Source: Escherichia phage vB_EcoM_WFbE185. Taken from it: a stretch of 64,000 bases of DNA. How positions within the stretch are numbered: position 1 is the stretch's first letter; each line of letters opens with the position of its first letter. Positions 13,058 to 56,244 of this stretch are shown one piece after another. Where the stretch lies: the sequence record MK373778.1; one strand, 5' to 3'. Made by a program: the position numbers and the translations under genes. Below the pieces are notes generated by a model. The model searched no databases and was not told where the DNA came from. It worked only from the letters and a program-made list of their open reading frames with translations.

Positions 13058-13087
13058 ATAGTATCACATATCAAATACGTTGTAAAC
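13058..13087 (-). promoter_or_regulatory. T4-type early promoter (GTTTAC-N18-TACTAT)
   Basis: Minus strand GTTTAC ... TGTGATACTATAGAC; drives the ORF at 12758-13027. Confidence 0.55.
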
Positions 13088-13093
13088 AATCTT

Positions 13094-13101
13094 TATAAAT
13101 A
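13094..13101 (+). promoter_or_regulatory. late promoter (TATAAATA) for gene 24
   Basis: Exact TATAAATA 27 nt upstream of the ATG. Confidence 0.6.
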
Positions 13102-13128
13102 ATCTATATCACATAAGGAAAAAATGCA

Positions 13129-14412
13129 ATGAGTAAAATCCAAAAATTATTGCGTGAATCTACAACGTCTACTAGCAACTCAATTGGTCGCCCAAATCTC
13201 GTTGCTTTGACTCGCGCTACGACTAAATTAATATATTCTGACATTGTAGCAACACAAAGAACTAATCAACCTGTTGCTGCTTTTTATGGTATCAAATATC
13301 TTAACCCAGATAACGAATTCACATTTAAAACCGGTGCTACTTATGCTGGCGAAGTTGGATATGTAGACCGAGAAAAAATTACCGAGCTCACAGAAGAATC
13401 AAAAGTCACACTAAATAAAGGCGATTTTTTCAAATATAATAATATCGTTTATAAAGTATTAGAAGATACACCGTTTGCAGATATTCAGGAAAGTGATCTA
13501 GAATTAGCTCTTCAGATTGCGGTCGTTCATTTAAAGGTACGGTTGTTTTCAGATGCAGCGGTAACAAGCAAATTTGAAAGCTCTGGTAGCGAAATTTCTG
13601 ATGCAAGATTCCAGATTAATAAATGGCAAACCGCTGTTAAATCTCGTAAACTTAAAACTGGCCTAACGGTTGAATTAGCGCAAGATTTGGAAGCGAATGG
13701 ATTTGATGCCCCTAACTTCTTAGAAGATTTACTTGCTACTGAAATGGCTGATGAAATTAATAAAGATATTCTTCAGTCTTTAATTACTGTATCGAAACGT
13801 TATAAAGTTACTGGAATTACTGACACCGGATTTATTGACTTGAGCTATGCGTCTGCTCCAGAAGCAGGTCGTTCATTATATCGAATGGTGTGTGAAATGG
13901 TATCACACATTCAAAAAGAGTCAACTTATACCGCAACGTTTTGCGTAGCTTCAGCTCGTGCAGCCGCTATTCTTGCTGCTTCAGGTTGGTTAAAACATAA
14001 GCCGGAAGATGATAAGTATCTTTCACAAAATGCTTATGGATTCTTGGCAAATGGATTACCTCTTTACTGCGATACTAACAGCCCGTTAGATTATGTTATT
14101 GTGGGTGTTGTAGAAAATATCGGCGAAAAAGAAATTGTAGGGTCCATCTTTTATGCTCCATACACTGAAGGAGTAGATTTAGATGACCCGGAACATGTTG
14201 GTGCATTTAAAGTTGTAGTTGATCCAGAAAGCTTGCAACCGTCTATCGGATTATTGGTTAGATATGCTTTATCAGCAAATCCTTACACAGTAGCAAAAGA
14301 CGAAAAAGAAGCGAGAATAATTGATGGTGGGGACATGGATAAAATGGCAGGACGTTCAGACTTGTCTGTTTTACTCGGTGTTAAATTGCCTAAAATTATT
14401 ATAGATGAATAA
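13129..14412 (+). CDS. 24: capsid vertex protein gp24
   Basis: 427 aa, gp23 paralog; late promoter upstream. Confidence 0.95.
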   Translation: MSKIQKLLRESTTSTSNSIGRPNLVALTRATTKLIYSDIVATQRTNQPVAAFYGIKYLNPDNEFTFKTGATYAGEVGYVDREKITELTEESKVTLNKGDFFKYNNIVYKVLEDTPFADIQESDLELALQIAVVHLKVRLFSDAAVTSKFESSGSEISDARFQINKWQTAVKSRKLKTGLTVELAQDLEANGFDAPNFLEDLLATEMADEINKDILQSLITVSKRYKVTGITDTGFIDLSYASAPEAGRSLYRMVCEMVSHIQKESTYTATFCVASARAAAILAASGWLKHKPEDDKYLSQNAYGFLANGLPLYCDTNSPLDYVIVGVVENIGEKEIVGSIFYAPYTEGVDLDDPEHVGAFKVVVDPESLQPSIGLLVRYALSANPYTVAKDEKEARIIDGGDMDKMAGRSDLSVLLGVKLPKIIIDE

Positions 14413-14420
14413 ACGAAAAA

Positions 14421-14436
14421 GGGACCGTACGGTCCC
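14421..14436. terminator. bidirectional terminator between gene 24 and rnlB
   Basis: Perfect palindrome GGGACC-GTAC-GGTCCC flanked by A5 and T5, between convergent genes. Confidence 0.75.
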
Positions 14437-14443
14437 TTTTTCG

Positions 14444-15442
14444 TTATGATACTAATTCAATCCATGCAGGACGCAGAACATCTTGCACCATTCGGACTAA
14501 TTCTTTCTTAACAAGATTCGGATTATCGGATGATGTTAATACAATACCTTCACGAGAAGTTTCTTCCAGAATATCTTGAACAGTCAATCCCATCACTTTG
14601 CCAAAATCTTTTGGCGTTACAGTCCCAATCTTAGAAATCACATTATTAACACGGTTTAATGTAACATAACAAGCTAGGACATCAAGCAAGTTTTTGTCAA
14701 TTTCGGTTAATGGAACCTGAGTTTTAATAGGCTTATCAGACTTTTTCTTTTCACTGAATTTAGAGTTCTTGCACTTAATAGCTACACGAGTACCGTTTGG
14801 CAGCCATTTAGGGAAACAAGGCTTCAGAACATAACCTTCTGCTGTATTATCGCCAATAACATTAGCATCAAATACACAATTATTTGCTTCTACAAGGTCT
14901 TCTGACGCAGTAGCATTATAAGCGGCTAAGACGGAATCAAGGTCATTTGGAATCGCGATAAGAGCATCGAATGTTCCACGACCGAGCATTGGTGCCATTT
15001 TAAAACCGAATTCATTACAGAAATCTTGCATTTCGTAATCGGTCAAATACGTATTATCACCACTTTCTGTATTGATAAGGATATCGAACACATAAAAATC
15101 TTTTTCACCGTAGTCAACACCTTTCTGGATTCCACCACCAGCGAATTCACCAAAGACCTGATATGATACAGCTCGAGAACTACCCATTACTTCTTGAACG
15201 TTTTTAATAGCCTTATCATACTTCTTGAGTACAATTTCATAACCATAAAAATCTTCTGCTGGAAGAATAGGGCCTGTGCGCTTGGCGCATGTGACGTTGT
15301 CACGTTCAATTATTAACGAGAAGTTAGTCCCATGGATTTTCTCACGTGCTACCCAAACACCAGTAGTCAAACCATTAGTGTAGAGTTTTTCAATAAACTT
15401 AGAGTTGTAGTGGTTTTCAAGACTGCTGTATTTCTTAAACAT
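14444..15442 (-). CDS. rnlB: RNA ligase 2
   Basis: 332 aa; [21 protein letters not shown]... with motif I KIHGTN matches recalled T4 Rnl2. Confidence 0.9.
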
Positions 15443-15533
15443 AAATCACCATTATAAATAATAATATCAAAATAATTAGCAGAGACTCTATCTCTGACCG
15501 GATGTTTAATTTGAATGGATAGAACCTAGATTC

Positions 15534-15559
15534 ATTATACCATCAAAAATTGTAAAGCA
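15534..15559 (-). promoter_or_regulatory. middle promoter (MotA box + -10) for rnlB
   Basis: Minus strand reads TGCTTTA, 13 nt, TATAAT. Confidence 0.5.
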
Positions 15560-15561
15560 TA

Positions 15562-15813: not shown

Positions 15814-16010
15814 TTCTTCACCTTTTTGTTAATCAAACGTTTACGGTATACAACTTTTTCTTTTGCTTTAAACTTTGACCGAGCTGTCTCGGCTTTAGTC
15901 CATAGTAATCCAACTTCTTTAGGTTGTAAACCGATTTTTTGAGCAATTTCTACGAATGAAAATCCCGCCTCATGTAATGTATAAACTTCAACTTCAGCTC
16001 TCATAATCAA
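15810..16010 (-). CDS. hypothetical protein with possible helix-turn-helix (T4 24.3 position)
   Basis: 66-aa ORF; GFSFVEIAQKIGLQPKEV resembles an HTH; basic tail. Confidence 0.45.
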   Translation of the reverse strand: MIMRAEVEVYTLHEAGFSFVEIAQKIGLQPKEVGLLWTKAETARSKFKAKEKVVYRKRLINKKVKK

Positions 16011-16098: not shown

Positions 16099-16105
16099 CT
16101 TACGA

Positions 16106-18252: not shown

Positions 18253-19767
18253 ATGACTGACATTAAAGTACATTTTCATGATTTTAGTCACGTGCGCATT
18301 GAATGCGACGAAAGTACGTTTTACGAACTTCGTGACTTTTTTAGCTTTGAAGCTGACGGGTATAAATTTAACCCAAAATATCGCTATGGGCAATGGGATG
18401 GTAGAATTCGACTTTTAGATTACAATCGTTTGTTACCATATGGACTTGTAGGACAAATAAAAAAGTTCTGTAACAATATGAGTTATTCTGTATGGATTGA
18501 CCATAAAATCTTTGAGACCGAAGACCTTACCAGGGAAGATTTTGACGCATGGCTTTCTAAACAAGAAATTTATTCAGGCAACGCCAAAATCGAACCGCAT
18601 TGGTATCAAAAAGATGCAGTATATGAAGGACTAGTTAATCGTCGTCGAATTTTAAACCTTCCGACATCAGCAGGTAAATCACTAATCCAAGCACTTTTAG
18701 CTCGGTATTATCTAGAGAACTATGAAGGTAAAATTCTCATTATCGTCCCTACAACAGCATTGACAACCCAGATGGCTAATGATTTTGTTGATTATCGCTT
18801 GTTTAGTCATTCGATGATTAAGAAAATTGGCGGTGGCGCTGATAAAGCGGACAAATCTAAAAATGACGCTCCAATTATTGTTGGCACATGGCAAACTGTA
18901 GTTAAGCAGCCTAAAGAATGGTTCTCTCAGTTCGGTATGATGATGAATGATGAATGCCACTTAGCAACAGGCAAAAGTATTTCTTCAATCATCTCAGGAT
19001 TAAATAATTGCATGTTTAAATTCGGTTTATCTGGCTCATTAAGAGACGGAAAAGCCAATGTAATGCAGTACGTAGGTATGTTCGGTGAAATCTTCCGTCC
19101 TGTTAGCACGTCTAAATTAATGGAAGATGGACAGGTAACTGAGCTTAAGATTAATAGTATTTTCCTTCGTTATCCGGACGAATTCACCACCAAATTAAAA
19201 GGTAAAACATACCAAGAAGAAGTTAAAATTATTACCGGACTAAAACGTCGTACAAAGTGGATTGCTCAACTTTCAGTAAAATTGGCTAAGAAAGACGAGA
19301 ACGCCTTTGTAATGTTTAAACACGTTACACACGGTAAAGAAATATTTGAAGCTATTAAAGAGCTTGGATACGAAAAAGTTTATTACGTATCAGGTGAAGT
19401 TGATACTGAAACACGTAACGCGCTTAAAGTCATGGCAGAAAATGGTAAAGGCATTATTATTGTTGCATCATATGGAGTATTCTCTACTGGTATTTCAGTC
19501 AAGAATCTTCATCATGTTATTTTTGCCCATGGTGTTAAATCAAAAATTATCGTACTTCAAACCGTAGGTCGCGTGCTTCGTAAGCATGGTTCTAAAGCTG
19601 TTGCTACAGTTTGGGATCTCATCGACGATGCAGGTGTAAAACCTAAATCATTAAATACTAAAAAGAAGTATACTCATCTTAATTACTTGTTAAAACACGG
19701 TATTGATCGTATCCAACGTTACGCTGATGAGAAATTTAACTATGTAATGAAAACAATTAATTTATAA
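18253..19767 (+). CDS. uvsW: UvsW RNA-DNA and DNA-DNA helicase
   Basis: 504 aa; helicase motif I LPTSAGKS and motif II MMNDECH; near-identical to recalled T4 UvsW. Confidence 0.95.
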   Translation: MTDIKVHFHDFSHVRIECDESTFYELRDFFSFEADGYKFNPKYRYGQWDGRIRLLDYNRLLPYGLVGQIKKFCNNMSYSVWIDHKIFETEDLTREDFDAWLSKQEIYSGNAKIEPHWYQKDAVYEGLVNRRRILNLPTSAGKSLIQALLARYYLENYEGKILIIVPTTALTTQMANDFVDYRLFSHSMIKKIGGGADKADKSKNDAPIIVGTWQTVVKQPKEWFSQFGMMMNDECHLATGKSISSIISGLNNCMFKFGLSGSLRDGKANVMQYVGMFGEIFRPVSTSKLMEDGQVTELKINSIFLRYPDEFTTKLKGKTYQEEVKIITGLKRRTKWIAQLSVKLAKKDENAFVMFKHVTHGKEIFEAIKELGYEKVYYVSGEVDTETRNALKVMAENGKGIIIVASYGVFSTGISVKNLHHVIFAHGVKSKIIVLQTVGRVLRKHGSKAVATVWDLIDDAGVKPKSLNTKKKYTHLNYLLKHGIDRIQRYADEKFNYVMKTINL

Positions 19768-28326: not shown

Positions 28327-28332
28327 GAAAAA

Positions 28333-28349
28333 GGGAGACAACGTCTCCC
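28333..28349. terminator. bidirectional terminator between gene 54 and the alt-downstream ORF
   Basis: GGGAGAC-AAC-GTCTCCC flanked by A-run and T-run, between convergent genes. Confidence 0.65.
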
Positions 28350-28358
28350 TTTAGGGGT

Positions 28359-28652: not shown

Positions 28653-28681
28653 AACGTTTTCCTCATGTTGTTGATGGGATG

Positions 28682-28711
28682 ATAGTATCACACATCCATG
28701 TGTTTGTAAAC
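28682..28711 (-). promoter_or_regulatory. T4-type early promoter
   Basis: Minus strand GTTTAC-N18-TACTAT; the -35 overlaps the alt stop codon. Confidence 0.55.
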
Positions 28712-31042: not shown

Positions 31043-32535
31043 TATAAACCTGTCTGGGACCACGGTCCAAATACGTCTTCAAACGAATCCGCTTCTGTTT
31101 TATCAAAACGGAACCCTTTAATAATTGGAAGGAAAATACCTACAGTACCTTCACGGCCTTTAGAATGAACCCAACCATTACATTCACAATCAGCGATACG
31201 TCCAATTAATTTACCTTCACGAGCTTCGGTCATTAATCGTTCACGGTCTAAATCATGACGCTCGTCTAAAGGAATAAGAACCTTTACACCGTCAACTGTT
31301 TTATGAGTTGTATCTTTAAAACCTGAACCACAATCGGTTGTAATACGACGACAACGTGATACGAGTTCGACACCACCTAATTTGTTAGGGTCTTTAGAGT
31401 GTTCATAGTATCCTACAACTTCTAAAGCGATATCAATAACTTCTTTAAATTTAATTAGGTTCTTAGAGCGTTTGTTTTCCCAATATGAATCACGGTTTTT
31501 AAGAATAATACCTTCAAGACCTTGGTCAACATATTTTTTATAAACCACTTTAGCTTCGTCAAGATTACGAACTAACTGATTTTCAATTGGCTCAATTCGC
31601 TTAAAGCCTTCAGCCATATTTTCAAGAGCAGCAAAACGAACATCGTATTTCTGACCTTTAATTTTGCCATCAGAATAGACTTCATCTAAAGGAACATAGT
31701 CCCAGGCTTGAAGAACAATACCTTCAGCTTCTTTAGGAGAAATAGTCCCTTGAAGAGATTTATTTGCTAAACCGTTTGAAGTGCTACGGTCCGCAACTTG
31801 TACTTCTTCGGATTCTTCATTATCACCAAATAAGAACGACAGGTCATTTCCTGAGCTCACAGCCTTTTTAATATCAAATGAATGGTAAACTAATTCACCG
31901 TCGATTAAAACCCCATTAGGGTGTCTTTCACGAGCTTCTTTAGTCATTTCCATTAGTTCATCCGCTAATAGAGTAAGACCATGATATTCGTTGCCGGCAC
32001 GAGAAAAGAATTGAACACCATCATCGCGAACTTCAGCGAAACAACGAGCACCATCGGCTTTTAATTGAGCAAATGCAGGCCATTTAATATTTTTAGTAAT
32101 CAATTTCTCATCATATGCAGATGCTAACATCTGTGGTTGCAATTGAATAAGTCCAGGCCACACCTTATTCGCGATAGACACTGAAGCACCTACTTCAAGG
32201 TCGCGCATCATTACACGACGAAGGACTTCTACATCATCAGGTTTACCGTCAGCGATATAACCCATGAGCTCTTTAATTGCAGCATTACCAGTGAGTTTAC
32301 GAGTGGCTAATGTGAACTCAATAAAATCCAACATGTCATCTAATTCAAGAAGACCATACGCTTGAGACCTTTCACCTGGTCCTGGCCATTTCTTAATATA
32401 ATACTGGATACCACGTGCATATGTTAAACGATACACACGTTCAAGTAATTTGTTGTCCTTATTTTTCTTAAGGATTTCCTGTTTTGTTTTAGTAGAACCG
32501 ATCGCAGCTATTTGGTTTAAAATATCTAAAATCAT
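31042..32535 (-). CDS. 30: ATP-dependent DNA ligase gp30
   Basis: 497 aa; adenylation motif KADGAR; MILDILNQIAAIGSTK... matches recalled T4 ligase. Confidence 0.95.
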   Translation of the reverse strand: MILDILNQIAAIGSTKTKQEILKKNKDNKLLERVYRLTYARGIQYYIKKWPGPGERSQAYGLLELDDMLDFIEFTLATRKLTGNAAIKELMGYIADGKPDDVEVLRRVMMRDLEVGASVSIANKVWPGLIQLQPQMLASAYDEKLITKNIKWPAFAQLKADGARCFAEVRDDGVQFFSRAGNEYHGLTLLADELMEMTKEARERHPNGVLIDGELVYHSFDIKKAVSSGNDLSFLFGDNEESEEVQVADRSTSNGLANKSLQGTISPKEAEGIVLQAWDYVPLDEVYSDGKIKGQKYDVRFAALENMAEGFKRIEPIENQLVRNLDEAKVVYKKYVDQGLEGIILKNRDSYWENKRSKNLIKFKEVIDIALEVVGYYEHSKDPNKLGGVELVSRCRRITTDCGSGFKDTTHKTVDGVKVLIPLDERHDLDRERLMTEAREGKLIGRIADCECNGWVHSKGREGTVGIFLPIIKGFRFDKTEADSFEDVFGPWSQTGL

Positions 32536-34099: not shown

Positions 34100-34301
34100 T
34101 TATAATTTCAACATCGGCCCAATGTCCGTATCCAGGTATACGGTCTTCGATAGATAAATTTCTGTCATTTTTAGGCATTTTAATTGACGTAACGTATGGT
34201 TCTAAACGGTTTTCCGCGTAATATGGAAAAACGTCGGTTACACGATAAGTAACTTCAATCATTTCCATACCAAACAATTTCTGGATTAATTTATTCAACA
34301 T
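34083..34301 (-). CDS. hypothetical protein
   Basis: 72-aa ORF in an operon-like array. Confidence 0.4.
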   Translation of the reverse strand: MLNKLIQKLFGMEMIEVTYRVTDVFPYYAENRLEPYVTSIKMPKNDRNLSIEDRIPGYGHWADVEIISVKDV

Positions 34302-34488
34302 GTTTCAACCCTTTAATAGGAGATAACTCTTTACCCATACGTATGTCAGAAGTCCCATCAACCCATTGAACAGCATACGCTTCATTGATAATTCCAGCGG
34401 CAGTTTTAAATTCGTTGAGAACTTTAAAAATCATCCCAGGGATTCCAACACCTTTTAATTGGACTGTTTGTGCTATTAAAAATTTCAT
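34291..34488 (-). CDS. hypothetical protein
   Basis: 65-aa ORF overlapping its neighbours. Confidence 0.4.
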   Translation of the reverse strand: MKFLIAQTVQLKGVGIPGMIFKVLNEFKTAAGIINEAYAVQWVDGTSDIRMGKELSPIKGLKHVE

Positions 34489-34542
34489 ATTTTTCCACTT
34501 ACTAAAGAAATCATTATACTCTAATCCGTCCTTGGATGTACA

Positions 34543-35157
34543 CTACTTAATGAAATTAATTTCTACCGGATGAACAACAGGTTGAGCAGTGATATATTGA
34601 GTAATTGCTTTCATGACTAGAGCTTCAGAACCAGGATTTTTCTCAACGAATTCACGTGCTAGGTTATGAGCTTCGAGTTCACTCAATAAACCGGAACGCT
34701 GGCATCCACGGTCTTGAGTACCCTGTTCAGATAAAAGGACTACTACATATTTTTCATCGTCGTAGGGCTTAGCCAGTTGAGCAAATGTTCCTTTACTTCC
34801 AAAAGGAGAGTTATGTCGCCACATCACGCCGTGTGGAGTTTCAACCTTCGTATATTCGTGCGGTCCATTTTTCTTAGTTTCTTGATGTGGAACTTCATAG
34901 ACCTTAGGGTTAGGACATTCAATAAAATGCTCATCTAAATCGGTCGAGAATATTAAAGTAAAACAATTACTGAATTTACCAACACCGGCCTGATAAATTT
35001 TACCTTCAGAAGTTCTAATTTCACAAACTGAGCCGGCATCAGTAACTTCTAAAACTTCAAAAGGCTCAATAAGGTCATATGAGAACATGTTTTTAAGGCG
35101 TGGAGTAATATCCCCATTTTTAAAATTCATTTTATAAAAAGTATTAACTTTAAACAT
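34543..35157 (-). CDS. hypothetical protein
   Basis: 204 aa from ATG at 35157 with SD GAGG upstream; the longer track ORF begins with TTG inside a hairpin. Confidence 0.5.
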   Translation of the reverse strand: MFKVNTFYKMNFKNGDITPRLKNMFSYDLIEPFEVLEVTDAGSVCEIRTSEGKIYQAGVGKFSNCFTLIFSTDLDEHFIECPNPKVYEVPHQETKKNGPHEYTKVETPHGVMWRHNSPFGSKGTFAQLAKPYDDEKYVVVLLSEQGTQDRGCQRSGLLSELEAHNLAREFVEKNPGSEALVMKAITQYITAQPVVHPVEINFIK

Positions 35158-35192: not shown

Positions 35193-35558
35193 TTAGATAT
35201 CAAATTCGTTAAGAACTACATCAAAGATTGCTTCGAGATGTTCAGGTTTAGCTCGGTTACTCAGGATATGACGAATCCAAGTTTTAACCAGAAGTTTACG
35301 ATTAACACCATTCCAGCAAGGATGAGTACCTAAATCACGTTGACGGAAGTCATCATCTAAAGCGATTTTGAAATTAGAACCTTCCATCGTGATTGAAACC
35401 GTGATGCCATTTTCAAATCGCATATAAACGTAATTAGGAGTCATGCACTGTTCGATTTCACAAACTGTACCGTTTTCGTGTTTCCATAAGCAAATAACTT
35501 CAGAAGAACCAGCAATACCGTTAGAAACATATTTACGTTCGAAGTTGATGTAGTTCAT
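35193..35558 (-). CDS. hypothetical protein (T4 30.7-like position)
   Basis: 121 aa; SD GGAGA; early promoter upstream. Confidence 0.5.
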   Translation of the reverse strand: MNYINFERKYVSNGIAGSSEVICLWKHENGTVCEIEQCMTPNYVYMRFENGITVSITMEGSNFKIALDDDFRQRDLGTHPCWNGVNRKLLVKTWIRHILSNRAKPEHLEAIFDVVLNEFDI

Positions 35559-35599
35559 TTTATTCTCCAGATGTTTAAGTTGTTTGTTGGTACAGGTCT

Positions 35600-35628
35600 A
35601 TAATAACATAACCTGTACCAAAGTAAAC
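35600..35628 (-). promoter_or_regulatory. T4-type early promoter with flanking inverted repeat
   Basis: Minus strand GTTTAC-N17-TATTAT; 9-bp inverted repeat (35589-35597 / 35611-35619) brackets the -10. Confidence 0.55.
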
Positions 35629-35632: not shown

Positions 35633-36001
35633 TTATGCAACTTTAATCCAATTGTCTAAATTTAAAACACCTTTGGCTTTCATTTTTTCGATCAGGTTAT
35701 CTGCTGTAATGCGTCCATTTTGATACCATGTAACATCTTCAGAGTAACCAGTTTCTTCGTCAACATATGTTTCTGAACGAATTTTACCGGTAATAATAGT
35801 TTTTAATTCGTATGTGTCACCTGTGAAAAAGTTTGCTAACACAATTTTCCAAGAGAAATCATCAGAAGGACCTTCAGGGGTCATACAACCTACGAACTCA
35901 AATTGCTCTTTGTATAACATCCACTGGAATTCTTTAATTTCGATAGCTTTATAACCGTCGTGGTCTTTACATTTGATGTATGAGTTCAGATTGATTTTCA
36001 T
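35633..36001 (-). CDS. hypothetical protein (T4 30.8-like position)
   Basis: 122 aa; early promoter upstream. Confidence 0.5.
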   Translation of the reverse strand: MKINLNSYIKCKDHDGYKAIEIKEFQWMLYKEQFEFVGCMTPEGPSDDFSWKIVLANFFTGDTYELKTIITGKIRSETYVDEETGYSEDVTWYQNGRITADNLIEKMKAKGVLNLDNWIKVA

Positions 36002-36043
36002 TTTGTTCTCCGGTTTGTTTTATTGATTAGGTGGTACAAGTCT

Positions 36044-36072
36044 ATAGTAACACATCCTACAGGAGAGTAAAC
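36044..36072 (-). promoter_or_regulatory. T4-type early promoter
   Basis: Minus strand GTTTAC-N17-TGTGTTACTATAGAC upstream of the ORF at 35633-36001. Confidence 0.55.
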
Positions 36073-37678: not shown

Positions 37679-38249
37679 AAAAGTTTCGGATTTGTTCCCA
37701 ATTCAGAGAACGAAGATTATTACGAGAGTACTGAATTACTTCAATACCGGCTTGTTTTAGAATGTCTGCCCAATTTTCAGGAGATCTGTCATATAATTCT
37801 GCGTATACAACCTTTTTAATACCTGACTGTGTAATAGCTTTAGTGCAATCAGGACACGGAGAAAGCGTCGTATATAACGTAGCACCTTCAATAGAATTAC
37901 CTTTACGAGCTGCAAACAAAATTGCATTCAATTCAGCATGGATTTCATTATTAGCAGACCATGCACTATGAGCCGCTCGATGTTCTTTAGCCAAAACAAA
38001 ATTATCCACCCGTCCAAATGCTGTAGTGCCTTCTTTATGCCCAGCAACGATGACCGGGCTTGGTTTATTCTTCAACCAACCGTTTTCGGATGCATGTTCG
38101 CAACAGTTTGTACCACCTGAAGGAGAGCCATTATAACCTGTAGAAATAATGCGTCCATCTTTTTCAATGACGGCACCAACTTTCCATGAACAACATTTTG
38201 ATTCTTGAGAAATCAAATAAGCAATTTGAAGATATGTGCTAGCTTTCAT
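37668..38249 (-). CDS. cd: dCMP deaminase
   Basis: 193 aa; zinc motifs HAELNA and PCPDC. Confidence 0.95.
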   Translation of the reverse strand: MKASTYLQIAYLISQESKCCSWKVGAVIEKDGRIISTGYNGSPSGGTNCCEHASENGWLKNKPSPVIVAGHKEGTTAFGRVDNFVLAKEHRAAHSAWSANNEIHAELNAILFAARKGNSIEGATLYTTLSPCPDCTKAITQSGIKKVVYAELYDRSPENWADILKQAGIEVIQYSRNNLRSLNWEQIRNFCGE

Positions 38250-39241
38250 TATTGAACCTTATTAATATAAGTTAACAGCTCTTTAGTTTGTTCCCAACTG
38301 ATGCACGCATCGGTAACGGAAACGCCATAGGACATATTATCAGAAATTTTTTGATTTCCTTCATGTAGGAATGATTCTATCATAATTCCTTTGACCAAAT
38401 CATTAGCTGCTAAATTTTTACCAATACCAATTTGATTGCTATAATGCCCAGCAGCGTTTGCATGGCTACAGTCAACCATTACATAATGATTCAGACCTAC
38501 TGCACTTGCTTTGTTAGAAGCTTCTTGAATATCAGAAGAATGATAGTTCGGGCCGTTGGTCCCGCCACGCAATACGATATGCGTATTCTGATTACCTTCA
38601 GCTTCAACAATGCCTACAGTACCATCGACGTCCATACCCATATACCGATGAGGCCAGGCGGCACTATACATCGCGTCTGTAGCTACTTTAATAGAACCAT
38701 TGGTTGCGTTCTTGAAGCCTACGCACATCGGTAGACCTGAAGCAATTTCACGATGTGTCTGACTTTCAGTCGTACGGGCGCCAATAGCAACCCATGAGAA
38801 AATACCAGAAAGATACTTAATCGTGAATGGGTCTAATACTTCAGTTGCTAATGGAAGTCCCATACGTAGAAGTTTACGACACAATGTTCGTGCAACTATA
38901 AGACCGTGGTTCATATCAAAACTTCCGTCAAGATATGGATCATTTACAAGACCTTTCCAACCTACGGTAGTTCGAGGCTTTTCAAAATAAACGCGCATCA
39001 CTAACAGAACATTAGGAAGACGAGTTTGAAGTTCAGCCAGACGTTTGCCGTATTCAACAGCAGCAATAGGGTCATGAATTGAACAAGGACCTACAACAAT
39101 AAGTTTGCGTGGGTCTTCACCGTTCATAATCGAATTAACTTGTTCGCGATGAGAAGCCACTTGTGATGCGTAAGCTTCCGACAAAGGAATAATCTCAGCC
39201 AGTTCTTTTGGAGAAATAAGTTTTCCGACGACAGGTAACAT
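38249..39241 (-). CDS. class I DAHP synthase (phospho-2-dehydro-3-deoxyheptonate aldolase, AroG/AroF/AroH-type)
   Basis: 330 aa; motifs GPCSIHD, KPRTTVGWKG, GARTTESQ, DCSHAN, ESFLHEGNQ, TDACI align with recalled E. coli AroG active-site regions; SD AAGGA; stop overlaps the cd start. Confidence 0.9.
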   Translation of the reverse strand: MLPVVGKLISPKELAEIIPLSEAYASQVASHREQVNSIMNGEDPRKLIVVGPCSIHDPIAAVEYGKRLAELQTRLPNVLLVMRVYFEKPRTTVGWKGLVNDPYLDGSFDMNHGLIVARTLCRKLLRMGLPLATEVLDPFTIKYLSGIFSWVAIGARTTESQTHREIASGLPMCVGFKNATNGSIKVATDAMYSAAWPHRYMGMDVDGTVGIVEAEGNQNTHIVLRGGTNGPNYHSSDIQEASNKASAVGLNHYVMVDCSHANAAGHYSNQIGIGKNLAANDLVKGIMIESFLHEGNQKISDNMSYGVSVTDACISWEQTKELLTYINKVQ

Positions 39242-39598: not shown

Positions 39599-39626
39599 TT
39601 CTATTTCCTCATTTGTTGGTAGAGTT

Positions 39627-39656
39627 ATAGTATCACAACTCTACCATGTTGTAAAC
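39627..39656 (-). promoter_or_regulatory. T4-type early promoter with flanking inverted repeat
   Basis: Minus strand GTTTAC-N18-TACTAT; 9-bp arms at 39618-39626 and 39638-39646. Confidence 0.55.
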
Positions 39657-40166: not shown

Positions 40167-40338
40167 TTAACCATTCAATTGCCTGGTCGACGTTATCAAA
40201 TATACCACCGTCCAAACGTTCTTCATGCTCATAGTCCAGCACATCAATACCGAACTGTCCATTTACTAAAGGCCAGGCTACAAACAAATATTCTTTATGC
40301 TGTTCGATTGTACGAAAAATCTTTTCGATGTTATTCAT
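40147..40338 (-). CDS. hypothetical protein (cd.x region)
   Basis: 63-aa ORF. Confidence 0.45.
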   Translation of the reverse strand: MNNIEKIFRTIEQHKEYLFVAWPLVNGQFGIDVLDYEHEERLDGGIFDNVDQAIEWLNENYVR

Positions 40339-41053
40339 AAGTTTTCCATTTTCTACCTAGTTGCCAGTCCGGGCTGTTTAATCTAGGATCGTTTATATCG
40401 GTGGTAGAAGACTTTTTACCTGAAATATGGATTAACCATTTTCTAGATTTAGCTGCTTTAGAATAATTTTCTTTAGCCTTATCACTTCTAACCTTGCCTT
40501 TATTGGATTTGGATATTTTATTACCCCATTCAATAATAGACTCTTCACTCATAAAATCTTTAACATTCTTACCATACATAGGATTATTTTCGCCTTTAAA
40601 CGTATTACCATTTTTAAGACGGGTTTCTTTAGATTTAATCCCATGACCTGGCAATTTCTTACCTTTAATCCAAGGAACCACACCATTATTAAATCGTTCT
40701 TTTTGCGATTTAGAAATTTTTGCAGATGTTTCTGGGCTTGAATTAACATTAATACGATTTTCATTAATATAATCCCAGCCTCCTTCTCCGCCAGGTTTCA
40801 AATTGTAATTAGTATCCAGTTTTATAAATTCTTTAGTTACTAATTTGGCTTCTAAATCATATGCTTCTTGTTTAGTTTCAAATATTTTTATGATTTCTTT
40901 ATTAAAAGAATCTTTACCATATTTTGATTCAGCATTTTTAAAAGCTGTACCGGAACCTAAATAAGAATCATTTTCTTTTAAGGTCTTATGAACCCCTATA
41001 TAAATTTTGTTGTTAACCAAACATGTGGTTTTATACACAGTGTATTTTTCCAT
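40331..41053 (-). CDS. GIY-YIG homing endonuclease (Seg-like, freestanding)
   Basis: 240 aa from ATG at 41053 (SD GAGGTGA 5 nt upstream); N-terminal GIY-YIG module VYKTTCLVNNKIYIGVHKT...YLGSG and C-terminal NUMOD-like basic repeats. Confidence 0.8.
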   Translation of the reverse strand: MEKYTVYKTTCLVNNKIYIGVHKTLKENDSYLGSGTAFKNAESKYGKDSFNKEIIKIFETKQEAYDLEAKLVTKEFIKLDTNYNLKPGGEGGWDYINENRINVNSSPETSAKISKSQKERFNNGVVPWIKGKKLPGHGIKSKETRLKNGNTFKGENNPMYGKNVKDFMSEESIIEWGNKISKSNKGKVRSDKAKENYSKAAKSRKWLIHISGKKSSTTDINDPRLNSPDWQLGRKWKTYE

Positions 41054-41071
41054 TAGAATCACCTCTATAGA

Positions 41072-42187: not shown

Positions 42188-42188
<1 letters not shown>

Positions 42189-42487
42189 TATTTTATTCCT
42201 AAGAAAGTTTCAAGAATACGAATGTTATGCTCGCGCCGGTCTTTATTAATTTCAGCAACGTTTTTATTAATTGACGTACTTCTAACGTTTGAAGAAATAA
42301 ATTTAATCATATGACTTTTGAGTTGTTGCAAATCCAACCCTTTTTCTTTAGCAGCTTTACGAAGAGCTTTACCTGCTTCATCTAGTGCCTTTGCTGCATC
42401 TTTGTCATAATTGACAAGTGACATTCCACGGCAGATATCAATATACTCGTCAGACCGTTTGATGTAATTCTCTAGTAATGTTTTCAT
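42188..42487 (-). CDS. hypothetical protein
   Basis: 99 aa; SD GAGGAA; early promoter upstream. Confidence 0.5.
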
Positions 42488-42515
42488 TTAGATTTCCTCA
42501 ATTATCCATAGGAGC

Positions 42516-42545
42516 ATTATACTCTGCTCCCGAGAGTTTGTAAAC
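42516..42545 (-). promoter_or_regulatory. T4-type early promoter
   Basis: Minus strand GTTTAC-N18-TATAAT; short inverted repeat GGAGCA / TGCTCC around the -10. Confidence 0.55.
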
Positions 42546-42769
42546 TATTTTACTAAAGATTCAATATACTCATGAAGAGCTTTAGTCGCTACTGCCCACT
42601 TATTCTGATATTCATTTTTCAGATTAGCACGAGACTGAACTAACAAGCGGTCATTAGTCGGAGGCAAAGATTCTAATCGTTGAATCTGGCGTCCATAAAT
42701 CATAGCCGCCATTTCAGATTCATAGATAAGCCCTTTAATGTATTCATGCTGTTCTTTAGTCATTGGCAT
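42545..42769 (-). CDS. hypothetical protein (pseT.1 position)
   Basis: 74-aa ORF. Confidence 0.45.
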   Translation of the reverse strand: MPMTKEQHEYIKGLIYESEMAAMIYGRQIQRLESLPPTNDRLLVQSRANLKNEYQNKWAVATKALHEYIESLVK

Positions 42770-43050
42770 TTTTCCTCTTTTAAACCACTACGATAATAAC
42801 ATAACATAGTCTTCTGGTCATGTATATATCTTTTTACGTCGTTTAACCAGATACGAAATTCTTGAGAGTCTTCAAATGGCATTCCAACCCACGGATTACC
42901 ATCAATAACCTTTACTTGCCATTTCTGGTTGTATTCGGAAATAGGCGTAGGCCATGAAGGATGTAAAGTTTCTTTAGGGCTTACTGGCACATCCTGAGTA
43001 CATCCAACTAGGAGACCAATAGATAATACAGCCACAGTTAATTTAATCAT
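42760..43050 (-). CDS. o-spanin lipoprotein (T4 pseT.2 equivalent)
   Basis: 96 aa; signal peptide with lipobox LLVGC. Confidence 0.7.
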   Translation of the reverse strand: MIKLTVAVLSIGLLVGCTQDVPVSPKETLHPSWPTPISEYNQKWQVKVIDGNPWVGMPFEDSQEFRIWLNDVKRYIHDQKTMLCYYRSGLKEEKCQ

Positions 43051-43891: not shown

Positions 43892-43920
43892 AATTTTCTC
43901 CTCGTGTTGTTGATAAACCC

Positions 43921-43950
43921 ATAGTATCACCATCCTTGGTGTTTGTAAAC
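43921..43950 (-). promoter_or_regulatory. T4-type early promoter for alc
   Basis: Minus strand GTTTAC-N18-GGTGATACTAT, then SD GAGGAG. Confidence 0.55.
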
Positions 43951-45086: not shown

Positions 45087-45104
45087 TCAGTTAGTTTTTT
45101 TAAA

Positions 45105-45134
45105 TTGTACCACAATCCTTGTGGTATGTAAACT
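45105..45134 (-). promoter_or_regulatory. T4-type early promoter for rnlA
   Basis: Minus strand GTTTAC-N18-TACAAT; the -35 overlaps the denA stop. Confidence 0.5.
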
Positions 45135-51510: not shown

Positions 51511-51759
51511 TTATTTCCTCAGATTTTTCTTAACAACTTTCCAATCAACTTTAAACGATTCAACATCAGAGTGGTGAATCCAGAATCCTGCACTTTCACC
51601 ATCTTCGTAGAGTGGACATCCATCGCATTCTTCGTTCCAACCCATTTCACGTAAAGCTTCTTCAGCTTGTTCAAGGAGTTCAGCGTCTTTACCGACGATG
51701 TTGAAGTACCATTTACCTCTAACTTCCGAATCTTTGATGCTCTGGCGTTGCAATCTCAT
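51511..51759 (-). CDS. hypothetical protein (frd.2 position)
   Basis: 82-aa ORF. Confidence 0.45.
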   Translation of the reverse strand: MRLQRQSIKDSEVRGKWYFNIVGKDAELLEQAEEALREMGWNEECDGCPLYEDGESAGFWIHHSDVESFKVDWKVVKKNLRK

Positions 51760-51822
51760 TTTATTCTCCTCTTCACTTTTATTTTATAGGGCTACTATAA
51801 CATAGCCCTATCTTGTTATAAA

Positions 51823-52215
51823 CTACTTTTTAAAAGTTTTTTGCAAAAGTTTGATGATTTCGTCGACGTTAGTTTCATCCACGATACAATGGATTTTTGT
51901 TACACCTAAAGTTATACCTTCGTTAGTAGGTTGAGGCTTTACTAAATCTACCTCAGTAAAGTATTTGAACTCGTCAGGATAAATCTCAAAATAAGTTTCA
52001 ATTTCACCACCGGCAGAACATACAGTACCATCTTCCATAGTTACACTTACTACGTTTGACGTATCGCTATCATAATCAGGTTCCATTCCGTTTACAACAA
52101 AACTAGGCCCGTGGAGTTCAATCAATTTTAACATCTTAGCGTTATTATGTGGTGCTTCTTGAACAAAGTCGTCTTTAAATAAAGGGTTAATGATATAAGA
52201 TTTTCCGATTTCCAT
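51823..52215 (-). CDS. hypothetical protein (frd.3 position)
   Basis: 130 aa; SD GAGGAA; early promoter upstream. Confidence 0.5.
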   Translation of the reverse strand: MEIGKSYIINPLFKDDFVQEAPHNNAKMLKLIELHGPSFVVNGMEPDYDSDTSNVVSVTMEDGTVCSAGGEIETYFEIYPDEFKYFTEVDLVKPQPTNEGITLGVTKIHCIVDETNVDEIIKLLQKTFKK

Positions 52216-52244
52216 TTTGATTTCCTCATGTTGTTGATAGGTCT

Positions 52245-52273
52245 ATACTAACACATCCAGGGAAGAAGTAAAC
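52245..52273 (-). promoter_or_regulatory. T4-type early promoter
   Basis: Minus strand GTTTAC-N17-TGTGTTAGTATAGAC upstream of the ORF at 51823-52215. Confidence 0.55.
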
Positions 52274-52304: not shown

Positions 52305-52322
52305 GGGAGACCGAAGTCTCCC
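52305..52322 (-). terminator. intrinsic terminator after gene 32
   Basis: Minus strand GGGAGAC-UUCG-GUCUCCC followed by UUUUGAG. Confidence 0.7.
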
Positions 52323-52328
52323 AATTTA

Positions 52329-53300: not shown

Positions 53301-53308
53301 GTATGATT

Positions 53309-53316
53309 TATTTATA
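53309..53316 (-). promoter_or_regulatory. late promoter (TATAAATA) for gene 32
   Basis: Reverse-complement TATAAATA upstream of the gene 32 leader. Confidence 0.5.
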
Positions 53317-53345
53317 AAGTAATTTTAACACACAAGAAATAAAGC

Positions 53346-53999
53346 TTAATACTTACATGATTTGATTGTTTCTATGAACAATTTCTTAGCAGCATTTCTA
53401 TCGATTTGAAGTATTTTTCGATATGCCTTTAATTTGGTAGAATAATTTTGCCAGACTAAATTGTCAGTGAGTTCGTCGTGCTTATCTATAATATTCAAAA
53501 ACGAGTCTAACAATAAGAAAGTCTCAAATGAAATTATATTGCTTTGTAGCAATTTGAATATGTAGCTCGACTGAACGTTGTTATTATAATCAAATATCTC
53601 TTGAAGCGCACTAACTTCAACTTTCTTACTGAAATAGTAGATGTTACGTACGTCTTCAGCAAACGTCTCTTTAGCTTGTTTGAGACGTCCAATATATTCC
53701 CTATAGAAAACTAATGCATCAGCGTCTGATATCTCACCAATCCATGCGTCTTGGTTAGCAACTAAGTTGCTTATGAATATCAAGGTGAGTTCCTTCAATT
53801 TATATTTCTCTGCTAGTTTTTCAAAGAAATATTTATCTCGGCGTTTTTGATACGCATTATCCGAAACACGCATGCACCAGTTATATTTGATTACGTCATA
53901 CCGACCACCAAAGTGGTTTTTGCACATCAAGTATAGTTTATATACTGATTTACCGTTAATATAACGTTCTCCGTCAGGAGGCATGCGTATTTTAATCAT
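53346..53999 (-). CDS. 59: helicase loader gp59
   Basis: 217 aa; MIKIRMPPDGERYINGKSVYKLYLM... matches recalled T4 gp59. Confidence 0.95.
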   Translation of the reverse strand: MIKIRMPPDGERYINGKSVYKLYLMCKNHFGGRYDVIKYNWCMRVSDNAYQKRRDKYFFEKLAEKYKLKELTLIFISNLVANQDAWIGEISDADALVFYREYIGRLKQAKETFAEDVRNIYYFSKKVEVSALQEIFDYNNNVQSSYIFKLLQSNIISFETFLLLDSFLNIIDKHDELTDNLVWQNYSTKLKAYRKILQIDRNAAKKLFIETIKSCKY

Positions 54000-54675
54000 A
54001 GTTCCATCCAGGCCATTTTGAAGATTTAAGTCTATACGTAACTAGAGATGCAGAAATATTAAAAACATCTGAAACTTCTGTGCATGATGAGTATTTTATA
54101 CCATCAATAATTATAGGTTTTTGTTTTTTAATAGTTCTTTCTTTAGAATGCGGCTTTGAATTTGCTATTCTAAGAGCTTCTTTGGTTGAATCAGGCATCG
54201 GCTTATTCGTTTTTCGCCCTTTTCGGACTTTACTCAAAGCTAATTTATGAGCTTCAGATAGTTTCCTACCCTTATTAGGGGATGGTATTTTTCTTTCTAA
54301 TCTGGTTTTAGATACTTTAGCCTTAGTCTCTTCAGATCTAGGTTTCCCTATTTTAGAAAGTGAAATAGCCCTTTTAGCTTCATCACTTTGTTTTTTACCA
54401 GGGCCACCTTTACCACCTGGAACCAGGTTATAAGTATCAGTTCGCAAAACAAAATCTTCATTAACCAATTCTGCTTCTTTTTTATAGGCGTCCTTGGCAT
54501 TATCATATTCATAAAGAACTTCAGTATAAAAATTTTTTAGCCCGTATTTAGCTTTGGCCGCTAATATAGCGCGACCAGACCCAATATACCAATCTTTCTC
54601 TTTATGTTTTTTGTGTACACCTATATAAATTTTACCATTTATTTTATTGGTAGTTTTATACACAACGTATTTCAT
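53992..54675 (-). CDS. GIY-YIG homing endonuclease (Seg-like, freestanding)
   Basis: 227 aa; VYKTTNKINGKIYIGVHKK...WYIGSG GIY-YIG module plus NUMOD-like basic repeats; start overlaps gp33 stop (ATGA), stop overlaps gp59 start. Confidence 0.8.
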   Translation of the reverse strand: MKYVVYKTTNKINGKIYIGVHKKHKEKDWYIGSGRAILAAKAKYGLKNFYTEVLYEYDNAKDAYKKEAELVNEDFVLRTDTYNLVPGGKGGPGKKQSDEAKRAISLSKIGKPRSEETKAKVSKTRLERKIPSPNKGRKLSEAHKLALSKVRKGRKTNKPMPDSTKEALRIANSKPHSKERTIKKQKPIIIDGIKYSSCTEVSDVFNISASLVTYRLKSSKWPGWNYD

Positions 54676-55010
54676 AATAAGAAATCTAACGTATTAGTTT
54701 TTTCACCACGAGCAACTGACGGGCGAAGCATGTTTTCGTCAATTGCTTCGCTTGTAATTTTTTCAACAATTCCTGTAGGAATAAATTTAGCAAATTGTGT
54801 TTCTGGAATAGAATTTTCTTCCAAGAAAGCAGTTGTTGCTTCTAAATAAGACATACCAAATTGTTCAACCATGGATTCGATAATGAATCCGTTTTCTTGT
54901 CGGTCAAGCAATTTAGCGATATCATCTTTATCGTGTTTTACTGCTAATTCTTGTTCAGATAAACCGGCCTCATCAACCGGTTTAATATCACTTAGTGAAA
55001 ACTGTGTCAT
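54672..55010 (-). CDS. 33: late transcription accessory protein gp33
   Basis: 112 aa; matches recalled T4 gp33. Confidence 0.9.
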   Translation of the reverse strand: MTQFSLSDIKPVDEAGLSEQELAVKHDKDDIAKLLDRQENGFIIESMVEQFGMSYLEATTAFLEENSIPETQFAKFIPTGIVEKITSEAIDENMLRPSVARGEKTNTLDFLL

Positions 55011-55257
55011 AAAGCTCGACTACCTCTTCGTTTTCAGCTTCAAATTGATCACGAGCGTCTTTATGATAAAGAGCTAACAAACGATTAAACATTTTTCCAT
55101 CGACACCAAGCTCTTCTTTAGCACGAGTACGAATGTCTTTAATCAGTTCATTATATCCAGAAATTTTAAGTTTGTTATCGGAAGCTTCCTTGACTAGTTT
55201 AGCCAGTTCTTCACCGTGCACATCTTGATTAAATTCAACCGCTTCTTTCTTAGCCAT
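54988..55257 (-). CDS. dsbA: double-stranded DNA-binding protein DsbA
   Basis: 89 aa from ATG at 55257 (SD GAGGT 4 nt upstream); the longer track ORF lacks an SD. Confidence 0.7.
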   Translation of the reverse strand: MAKKEAVEFNQDVHGEELAKLVKEASDNKLKISGYNELIKDIRTRAKEELGVDGKMFNRLLALYHKDARDQFEAENEEVVELYDTVFTK

Positions 55258-55264
55258 GTTTACC

Positions 55265-56182
55265 TCAGAATTCATTAATTACACTTGTTAATTTAGAAAG
55301 ACCAGATTTTACAAAATATGAATAAATCTTGCCTTTAGGTTGTTGTTTATATGAGTTATAATACTCTATAATGGTTGAAGCAATATTATCAGGGATATAA
55401 TCAAAATCAATGAGAACCAAATTTTCTTGATACCGTTTATATTCTTCTGCACTTAATAATACTTCAGCTTGAGAACGGTCATTGGCAATTGCTTCAATAA
55501 TCGATGTTTTCATGCTCGGAGTTCGTTCACCATCAACTCTGGTAAACCAGAAGTCGCCACGAACTCGAACAGATGCAACACCATCCTTACGGTCACCTTT
55601 AAGAATTTTAGTCATGCAATCAATTTCAGCAGAACCATTCTTAATTTTAACCCATTTTTTCTGTGGTGGCGACCACTGTTTAACGTTAGGATATTTGTGT
55701 AATTGTGTAAAGTCACCATCTGATGCAACAATACATACTTTATGTCCAGCTAATGACAAATATTTAGTTAATACACCGATATGGTCATCCGCTTCATACT
55801 TGTCAATATCCATTACAACGTATGGCATGTATTTCTTAATCTCATCAACAACTTGATGGAGTGCAGTAAAATATCCTTCCCAATCCCACTTTGAAGCTTC
55901 ACGATCGGTTTTACGATTTTTCTTGTAATAGTAAGCAAAGTCACGACGCCAATAACCCGAAGTAGCATTATCCATACACAATACAAATTTTGTATAGCCT
56001 TGCTTACGGAACATCACTACGTTTTTACGAATTGAATTCAAGATTACATGGCGAACCATCGGAACGGTAATTTTATCGCCGTCTTCAAAGTTGTTTAATG
56101 CGGCTGCCAATGCAATGTTACTAAAGTCAGCAAGTGCAATACCTTCTTTGTAATCTTCATCCAACATCATTTCTAGATCCAT
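55265..56182 (-). CDS. rnh: RNase H (5'-3' exonuclease, FEN family)
   Basis: 305 aa; synteny before gene 34; early promoter upstream. Confidence 0.9.
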   Translation of the reverse strand: MDLEMMLDEDYKEGIALADFSNIALAAALNNFEDGDKITVPMVRHVILNSIRKNVVMFRKQGYTKFVLCMDNATSGYWRRDFAYYYKKNRKTDREASKWDWEGYFTALHQVVDEIKKYMPYVVMDIDKYEADDHIGVLTKYLSLAGHKVCIVASDGDFTQLHKYPNVKQWSPPQKKWVKIKNGSAEIDCMTKILKGDRKDGVASVRVRGDFWFTRVDGERTPSMKTSIIEAIANDRSQAEVLLSAEEYKRYQENLVLIDFDYIPDNIASTIIEYYNSYKQQPKGKIYSYFVKSGLSKLTSVINEF

Positions 56183-56214
56183 ATGAACCTCTTGTTCAGT
56201 TAGTCAACTTGTCT

Positions 56215-56244
56215 ATAGTAACACACTCATTTGAAAGCGTAAAC
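56215..56244 (-). promoter_or_regulatory. T4-type early promoter for rnh
   Basis: Minus strand GTTTAC-N18-TGTGTTACTATAGAC; back-to-back with the gene 34 late promoter. Confidence 0.55.

Follow-up and report, generated by a model that had tools for sequence, protein, structure and literature searches.

The early promoters (Pe) of phage T4 are of the UP/-35/TGn/-10 type with additional consensus regions and are stimulated by Alt (PMC2988021). GTTTAC occupies -36 to -31 in these promoters, and A-11 and T-7 are highly conserved (PMC1524935), while the consensus given for the T4/PST pair is TTTACW-N17-TAYWAT (PMC4122927). Nolan et al. (2006, Virol J 3:30, Additional file 3) predicted 58 early promoters in phage RB69, using a hidden Markov model (HMM) that took the T4 consensus as its seed. 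Some early promoters are combined with a stem-loop (PeSL), the stem lying between -35 and -10 or overlapping -10 (PMC2839356, PMC4122927). Here we analyse a 64,000-nucleotide stretch of Escherichia phage vB_EcoM_WFbE185 (MK373778.1), referred to as the window. A reading of its letters alone (the original prediction) had proposed a family of at least ten early promoters on its minus strand. These sites are very probably host sigma-70-dependent early promoters of an RB69-like T-even phage, and some of them hold a stem-loop around the -10.

Scanning the window for GTTTAC-N16–19-TACTAT gave seven matches, all on the minus strand, where 0.05 were expected (≈140-fold excess). The looser pattern GTTTAC-N16–18-TAnnnT had 13 minus-strand matches and a single one on the plus strand. 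We also scanned both strands using a weight matrix of two blocks joined by a flexible spacer. At a score of at least 10 this gave 14 minus-strand and no plus-strand matches (≈1.7 expected per strand); at a score of at least 16 only ≈0.1 is expected per strand, and 12 sites reach at least 18. All ten proposed sites exist, and their coordinates are correct if taken as the low-coordinate (last) base of the -10 hexamer, save that 45105 should read 45104. The count of at least ten was right but omitted sites 15902 and 51794, as well as 34513, a weaker candidate.

The proposed architecture of GTTTAC, a gap of 17–18 nt and a TACTAT-type -10 is present at all ten sites if the -10 is written as TAnnnT. 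GTTTAC with this gap is the same as TTTACN with a 16–17 nt spacer; site 51794 carries GTTTAT. Within the -10, T-12, A-11, A-8 and T-7 are found at 10/10 sites, and T-15 and G-14 of the extended -10 (TGn) at 9/10. Further upstream is an A-rich, UP-like tract, in which each of the six positions from -44 to -39 is an A in 5–8 of the 10 sites. The corresponding counts are 25–38 of 49 in RB69, where the 49 sites with an HMM score of at least 15 served as a stand-in for the whole genome. "Near-identical" was too strong a description of the family, as the mean pairwise identity is 51% (range 36–71%) over 58 aligned positions, compared with 26% for random pairs.

All sites are co-oriented with the early-gene strand and stand directly upstream of early-gene orthologues, among them alt.-3, 30.7, 30.8, cd.2, alc, rnlA, frd.2 and rnh (gene names were transferred from the annotation of phages JK45, RB69 and T4). 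At the ten sites, leaders of 20–36 nt with a GAGG or GGAG Shine-Dalgarno sequence (SD) separate the predicted start from the ATG. A GAGGA-type SD had been noted after most sites; the ten sites share a GGA-containing SD before an ATG, and most leaders have GAGGA(A). The -35 was also said to overlap the upstream stop codon often. This is so at 3/10 sites (28682, 42516, and 45104), where TAG runs directly into TTTAC; at three more the stop codon is 2–4 nt away. The predicted promoters and the further candidates are as follows.

13051–13087, minus strand: early promoter upstream of the 89-aa open reading frame (ORF) 12758–13027, in the divergent region with gene 24; -35 GTTTAC 13082–13087, -10 TACTAT 13058–13063, predicted start 13051; weak 6-bp inverted repeat TTGATA/TATCAA (13047–13074); RB69 Pe:109605, position-equivalent T4 site 107253.
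15895–15931, minus strand: candidate early promoter of uncertain status inside the 24.3 ORF; GTTTAC-N18-TACTAT-GGAC, score 24.9, -35 15926–15931, -10 TACTAT 15902–15907; 82-nt leader to 24.2, holding the small hairpin GCCGAGACAGCTCGGT; 100% identical to RB69 Pe:112451, no T4 counterpart found.
28675–28711, minus strand: alt.-3 early promoter; -35 28706–28711, its G being the G of the alt stop codon TAG; -10 TACTAT 28682–28687, predicted start 28675; 23-nt leader ATCAACAACATGAGGAA; RB69 Pe:125323, T4 123064.
34506–34543, minus strand: weaker candidate upstream of ORF 34291–34488; GTGTAC, 19 nt, TATAAT (-10 34513–34518); weight-matrix scores 13.4 (window scan) and 21.8 (second scoring).
35587–35628, minus strand: 30.7 early promoter with embedded stem-loop; -35 35623–35628, -10 TATTAT 35600–35605, predicted start 35593; spacing 1 nt shorter (GTTTAC N17; TTTACN N16); 11-bp inverted repeat TTGGTACAGGT/ACCTGTACCAA around the -10, arms 35611–35621 and 35587–35597; RB69 Pe:131670, T4 129890.
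36037–36072, minus strand: 30.8 early promoter; -35 36067–36072, TGTGT TACTAT AGAC with -10 36044–36049, predicted start 36037; spacing 1 nt shorter (GTTTAC N17; TTTACN N16); RB69 Pe:132117, T4 130281.
39617–39656, minus strand: cd.2 early promoter with embedded stem-loop; -35 39651–39656, -10 TACTAT 39627–39632, predicted start 39620; 10-bp inverted repeat TGGTAGAGTT/AACTCTACCA, arms 39637–39646 and 39617–39626; RB69 Pe:134561, T4 orthologue Pe133295 of AF158101.
42509–42545, minus strand: early promoter of the 99-aa ORF 42188–42487; -35 42540–42545, its G common to the upstream stop codon TAG; -10 TATAAT 42516–42521, predicted start 42509; 6-bp inverted repeat GGAGCA/TGCTCC, arms 42525–42530 and 42511–42516, RNA fold z -2.9; 100% identical to RB69 Pe:136687.
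43914–43950, minus strand: alc early promoter; -35 43945–43950, -10 TACTAT 43921–43926, predicted start 43914; leader ATCAACAACACGAGGAG; RB69 Pe:138093, T4 136307.
45097–45133, minus strand: rnlA early promoter; -35 45128–45133, its G being the G of the denA stop codon TAG; -10 TACAAT 45104–45109, predicted start 45097; small spacer hairpin CCACAAGGATTGTGG; RB69 Pe:139277.
51786–51823, minus strand: frd.1 early promoter with embedded stem-loop; variant -35 GTTTAT 51818–51823, -10 TATAGT 51794–51799, predicted start 51787, score 18.1; 9-bp inverted repeat ATAGGGCTA/TAGCCCTAT, arms 51803–51811 and 51786–51794; RB69 Pe:145300, T4 146114, with a different stem there (AGGGTA/TACCCT).
52238–52273, minus strand: frd.2 early promoter just past the gene 32 terminator (52305–52322); -35 52268–52273, TGTGT TAGTAT AGAC with -10 52245–52250, predicted start 52238; spacing 1 nt shorter (GTTTAC N17; TTTACN N16); leader ATCAACAACATGAGGAA; RB69 Pe:146013, position-equivalent T4 site 146846.
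56208–56244, minus strand: rnh early promoter in the divergent region with gene 34; -35 56239–56244, TGTGT TACTAT AGAC with -10 56215–56220, predicted start 56208; RB69 Pe:149309, T4 150734.

Many Escherichia and Shigella T-even phages, among them G53, mogra, JK45 and APCEc01, are 98.4–98.9% identical to a 12-kb piece of the window. APCEc01 is classified as a Mosigvirus, and identity to Mosigvirus isolates is 98.5–98.9%. The blocks that align with RB69 average 95.0% identity. Judged by these identities the window is from a Mosigvirus, i.e., an RB69-like T-even phage, and from an isolate distinct from RB69. The 12 strong sites (the ten, 15902 and 51794) map one-to-one onto the RB69 Pe predictions listed above, with 90–100% sequence identity. 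The offset between the two sets is constant at 13–16 nt, which corresponds to the start of the 51-nt model of Nolan et al. (2006), and the three sites with the 1-nt shorter spacer (35600, 36044, and 52245) are exactly those marked "1 bp del" in that work.

Counterparts were located in T4 at nine positions, upstream of segD, alt.-3, 30.7, 30.8, cd.2, alc, frd.1, frd.3 and rnh. At the T4 positions that correspond to 15902, 42516, 45104 and 34513, no site scored 12 or more. The T4 GenBank record names an "early promoter Pe133295 between cd.2 and cd.3", and 133295 lies exactly 7 nt past the -10 that we located, which supports taking the A of C-T-A-Y-C as +1 in the window too. Each site is thus orthologous to a promoter already catalogued in RB69, and most of them to one in T4 too, so the early promoters as such are already known. 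Motif, statistics, positions and orthology were read directly from the DNA; promoter activity and the exact start sites we infer through homology to T4.

In T4 itself, the alt.-3 and alc promoters share an identical stretch of ≈45 bp (GTTTACAAGTCCCTCGTGTTGTGTTATAGTAGTCTTACT.ACATAACATGAGGA) at 19065–19094 and 32308–32337 of the T4 locus, a duplicated promoter-leader cassette with its copies 13 kb apart. The window orthologues of this pair (28682 and 43921) are 64% identical over 58 aligned positions.

Taken together, the sites would combine four recognition elements, namely an UP-like A tract (≈-44 to -39), a GTTTAC(A/T) -35 (-36 to -31), TGn and a TAyWAT -10. Because of this combination unmodified E. 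coli RNA polymerase should be able to fire them right after DNA injection, aided by the injected Alt ADP-ribosyltransferase. Transcription would start at the A of a conserved C-C-T-A-T-C, 7 nt after the -10, and give short leaders of 20–36 nt, with AUCAAC or ACCAAC at the 5′ end and a GAGG or GGAG SD at the 3′ end.

Conservation beyond the -10 had been described in two ways, and both hold in part. The longer block TGTG(A/T)TACTATAGAC is exact at 13058, 36044 and 56215 but inexact at the other seven sites, and the 10-mer TACTATAGAC alone, with at most one mismatch, is not enriched in the window (8 found and 4.3 expected). As for the TATAGAC extension, AGAC directly follows the -10 at 5/10 sites but is absent at the other five. 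The alignment of the 49 RB69 promoters indicates that TATAGAC makes up the front half of a longer RB69-type block, AGWCCTATCAA, which would span the transcription start. In these promoters the preferred bases are A-6 (33), G-5 (28), T or A at -4 (22 and 20), C-3 (39; 1.4 bits), C-2 (30), T-1 (41), A+1 (39), T+2 (38) and C+3 (35), with an A-rich run next. The 51-nt model of Nolan et al. (2006) ends at the putative start and thus covers the block after the -10, and C is preferred at -3 to -1 in RB69 (PMC1524935).

The suggestion that the extension is an additional recognition element or a defined 5′ end was reasonable but incomplete, since the block reaches the start site, varies with the -10 and is often the arm of a stem. 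In E. coli promoters, a G two bases past the -10 is favoured by sigma region 1.2, and T-1/A+1 at a distance of 7 nt is the preferred start configuration. By analogy it is plausible that the block contributes to polymerase binding and start-site choice, in that it would supply the discriminator G two bases after the -10 as well as a pyrimidine(-1)/purine(+1) start. In RB69 the -10 variant is linked to the tetramer that follows it: TATAGT is followed by AGTC in 10/11 cases, TAYTAT by AGAC in 11/26 and TATAAT by GCTC in 3/6 (Fisher p = 0.001). This linkage points to promoter sub-families related by descent, within which the block may partly be inherited as a unit.

The leaders may also carry signals for message decay. 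According to the review PMC3014915, the strong RegB/S1 site is GG*AGRAYARAA (Durand et al., 2006), and RB69 carries a divergent regB whose GGAG SD is reported to be cleaved in vivo; the gene is annotated in RB69 at 60847–61305, outside the region equivalent to the window. GGAG had been pointed out in several SDs, and we find it in those of 4/10 sites plus 51794. The full GGAGRAYARAA occurs three times in the window (0.32 expected), each time in an SD downstream of one of the promoters.

35558–35568, minus strand: SD of 30.7 directly before the ATG, full RegB/S1 match GGAGAATAAAA.
36001–36011, minus strand: SD of 30.8, full RegB/S1 match GGAGAACAAAA.
51759–51769, minus strand: SD of frd.1, full RegB/S1 match GGAGAATAAAA.

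The SDs at 13058 and 43921 contain GGAG without the full 11-mer. Going by the leader sequences, the remark on RegB is plausible. RegB/S1 cleavage is probable in the GGAG leaders, above all in the three that contain GGAGRAYARAA, and would silence these messages after the early period.

Five of the 12 strong window promoters contain perfect inverted repeats of at least 6 bp, at 35600 (11 bp), 39627 (10 bp), 51794 (9 bp), 42516 (6 bp) and 13058 (6 bp). In each repeat the spacer holds one arm, and the other extends from the end of the -10 across +1, with the dyad axis mostly between -12 and -11. As a control, upstream and downstream halves taken from different promoters were joined into chimeras (500 permutations). 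They contained 0.58 ± 0.74 such stems, and 0/500 permutations reached the native five. The mean minimum free energy was -8.4 kcal/mol for the native window promoters and -5.1 ± 0.5 kcal/mol for the chimeras. The strongest individual RNA folds are those of 30.7 (-17.9 kcal/mol, z -4.3), cd.2 (-17.2 kcal/mol, z -6.3) and frd.1 (-15.4 kcal/mol, z -4.3). In RB69, 12/49 promoters have stems of at least 7 bp, compared with 2.0 ± 1.2 in chimeras, and one register, whose axis is between -12 and -11, dominates. Fixed-register covariation across the 49 RB69 promoters is weak (55.5% paired and 53.9% when shuffled, with the score matched by 20/500 shuffles), and the case for hairpins is therefore built on the flexible-register chimera tests and the individual folds.

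The arm sequences vary among promoters while their complementarity stays, as in GGACTA/TAGTCC, GGGCTA/TAGCCC, GGTCTA/TAGACC, GAGAGCA/TGCTCTC and GGTACAGG/CCTGTACC. A search based on gp30.7 gave 14 related loci, all from close relatives, and the arms of the 30.7 stem are unchanged in 13 of these and in T4, while the adjacent leader diverges. Single-arm substitutions that keep a G.U pair on the sense strand were seen in the 3′ arm of the 30.7 stem in one of these loci (L011) and in the cd.2 stem in RB69. Folds of the sense strand are more stable than those of the antisense strand (-7.8 and -6.5 kcal/mol, Wilcoxon p = 0.02), and this holds for 15 of 17 strong hairpins. Hairpins are also stronger beside an upstream co-directional ORF (mean -9.0 and -5.4 kcal/mol; one-sided p = 0.012, with crude ORF calling).

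In about a third of the promoters, base-pairing between the spacer and the block beyond the -10 would thus create a stem-loop enclosing the -10. As in the published PeSL arrangement, it would form only in read-through RNA from the upstream gene. The embedded stem-loops resemble the PeSL architecture and are already covered by published work. The PeSL papers propose a terminator or attenuator role together with cassette shuffling (Arbiol et al., 2010; Comeau et al., 2014), and terminator activity has been shown for one GC-rich RB49/phi1 stem only (PMC2839356, PMC4122927). Intrinsic termination was considered for the window stems and rejected: no U-tract follows them, so they are not canonical intrinsic terminators, and 51786–51811 was flagged on the opposite strand only. 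Two strong GC-rich hairpins with T-tracts occur at 52305–52322 (the gene 32 terminator) and 28330–28352 (a terminator between alt.-3 and gene 54), and promoters preceded by such terminators are without an embedded stem-loop. An Rfam search of the window found no family.

The reading of the sites as T4-type early promoters is borne out by their anatomy, strand, position before early genes and counterparts in RB69 and T4, and the comparison with T4 showed that both GTTTAC at -36 to -31 and TTTACW-N17-TAYWAT fit. Several points weigh against it. Generic sigma-70 scans (TTGACA/TATAAT) stay at chance in this AT-rich window (60 matches for 56 expected, and 49 for 38), so only the T4-type pattern discriminates promoters here. 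The RB69 Pe sites are themselves predictions, and a literature search for genome-wide transcription start maps of T4, RB69 or a Mosigvirus gave nothing usable. Roles for sigma region 1.2 and the start-site block are assigned by analogy with E. coli promoters, and candidate 15902 sits within an ORF, without the start-site block and with no SD nearby. Generic sigma-70-like matches are abundant in the window, and a TAnnnT -10 with TGn is also common to T4 middle promoters (PMC2988021), so the sites might be MotA/AsiA-dependent middle promoters or chance matches in AT-rich DNA. We hold this to be extremely improbable in view of the ≈140-fold excess of the GTTTAC pattern on one strand only. The middle-promoter version was rejected because a TGCTT MotA box at -30 is missing from every site; TGCTT-N12–14-TAnnnT occurs in the window at chance frequency (12 found and 12.3 expected), at positions other than those of the Pe sites.

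Two further explanations concern what has been conserved around the -10 of these early promoters. The sites could mainly be mobile PeSL cassettes, with the conservation past the -35 and -10 due to common descent and recombination or gene conversion instead of polymerase contact, and with the provision of short homologies for swapping gene cassettes as their main evolutionary role. This would complement the promoter reading, and we give it slightly less than an even chance. It is favoured by the linkage between -10 variant and tetramer in RB69, by the excess of stems in the window and in RB69 and by their agreement with the published stem placement. Candidate 34513 also speaks for it, as it lies in a lineage-specific insert (a segment, ≈34304–35151, that does not align to RB69 and is present in JK45) and resembles an RB69 sub-class, CCAAGGAYGG..GAGTATAAT, found at Pe:8387, 8947, 51019 and 52042. 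So does the absence from the window of RB69 ORF245c, which has a frd.3-like position, since the 26-bp junction at 52213–52238 matches RB69 on both sides of that ORF (locus positions 42676–42701 and 42939–42964), as expected from deletion or insertion through recombination between repeated leader sequences. Most of the larger indels between the window and RB69 are nevertheless not bounded by promoters, for example those of a DAHP synthase gene and two GIY-YIG endonuclease genes, and C-3, T-1, A+1 and T+2 are kept across sub-families and in stemless promoters, which suggests selection at the start site itself. Alternatively, the dyad at -12/-11 (TAGGACTA-N8-TAGTCCTA) might be bound as an operator by a dimeric phage protein, which would switch early promoters off a few minutes after infection. 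The shut-off is not completely understood (PMC3014915), and one register is prominent: from -16/-7 and -17/-6 outward, 10 RB69 promoters have at least six contiguous pairs, compared with 0–1 in neighbouring registers, and 55.5% of cells are paired in the main register, compared with 30–46% when the partners are slid. An operator is still very unlikely. The arms differ among promoters with complementarity kept, which argues for base-pairing and not for the half-site of one protein; the repeat is found in only ≈1/3 of the promoters; and the bias toward stable sense folds, together with two single-arm changes that both yield G.U pairs, points to RNA structure.

The order of the transferred genes runs from gp18–24 through rnlB, hoc, uvsW, uvsY, the baseplate genes, alt, 30, 30.1–30.9 and rIII to 31, cd, pseT, alc, rnlA, denA, nrdB, nrdA, td and frd, and on to 32, 59, 33, dsbA, rnh and 34–37. 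By this order the minus strand at ≈28–56 kb is the classical T-even early/middle region. Between cd and cd.2 lies the AroG-like DAHP synthase gene (annotated in relatives as phospho-2-dehydro-3-deoxyheptonate aldolase; 38249–39241, minus strand, 330 aa). It has no copy at the equivalent position in RB69 or T4 and is apparently an auxiliary metabolic gene of the sub-lineage of the window. The ORFs 53992–54675 and 40331–41062 (minus strand, 227 and 243 aa) are free-standing Seg-like homing endonuclease genes, as their GIY-YIG/NUMOD3/I-TevI-type domains show. They have no RB69 counterpart (no DNA alignment) and none in the JK45 annotation. One is inserted between 59 and 33 and the other between cd.4 and pseT, and neither has an early promoter of its own.

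For annotation, the early-promoter reading gives a reliable map of 12–13 early transcription units in a Mosigvirus isolate, with predicted starts and three probable strong RegB sites, and it shows that a reader without tools was able to recover a genuine regulatory family from raw sequence. The research value is confined to the embedded stem-loops, whose preference for abutting an ORF and whose sense-strand stability suggest how T-even phages may separate tightly packed early cistrons. It is conceivable, though we think it unlikely, that they are a distinct RNA-level device that folds only in read-through transcripts and insulates cistrons. If so, the hairpins could, for example, attenuate read-through or, once RegB or RNase E has cut the downstream leader, shield the 3′ end of the upstream message, and the dense early region could do without separate terminators, which goes beyond what was tested in the PeSL papers.

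Compared with E. coli sigma-70 promoters, the sites share TGn, the A-tract, the G two bases past the -10 (28/49 in RB69), the pyrimidine at -1 and the purine at +1, but they differ in having GTTTAC instead of TTGACA as the -35 and AGWC instead of GGGA as the discriminator. They resemble T4 early promoters in the UP-like A tract, GTTTAC at -36 to -31, TGn, the TAnnnT -10 and a start 7 nt after the -10, and they stand at equivalent positions before alt.-3, 30.7, 30.8, cd.2, alc, frd.1 and rnh and after gene 32. Unlike in T4, the -10 tends to TACTAT and is then followed by AGAC(C/T)T, where the T4 orthologues have AGTC, ATAC, TATC, AGCT or TACC. RB69 differs in lacking the segment with the extra candidate 34513, and in the window the frd.2 promoter is joined directly to frd.2 because ORF245c is absent. 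Like the RegB/S1 sites of T4, the window leaders have GGAG inside the SD of early genes, and three match all 11 positions, but most have GAGGA(A), which contains GGA without GGAG. The window stems are AT-richer than published PeSL stems, 6–11 bp long and without a U-tract; only ≈40% of the window promoters carry one, and an association with indels is seen at one junction only. Yet the order of elements is that of the PeSLs, with a stop codon or AT-rich tract, early promoter, stem-loop, SD and start codon, the stems are placed as in phi1/RB49, and the TTTACW-N17-TAYWAT consensus of the T4/PST pair fits the window.

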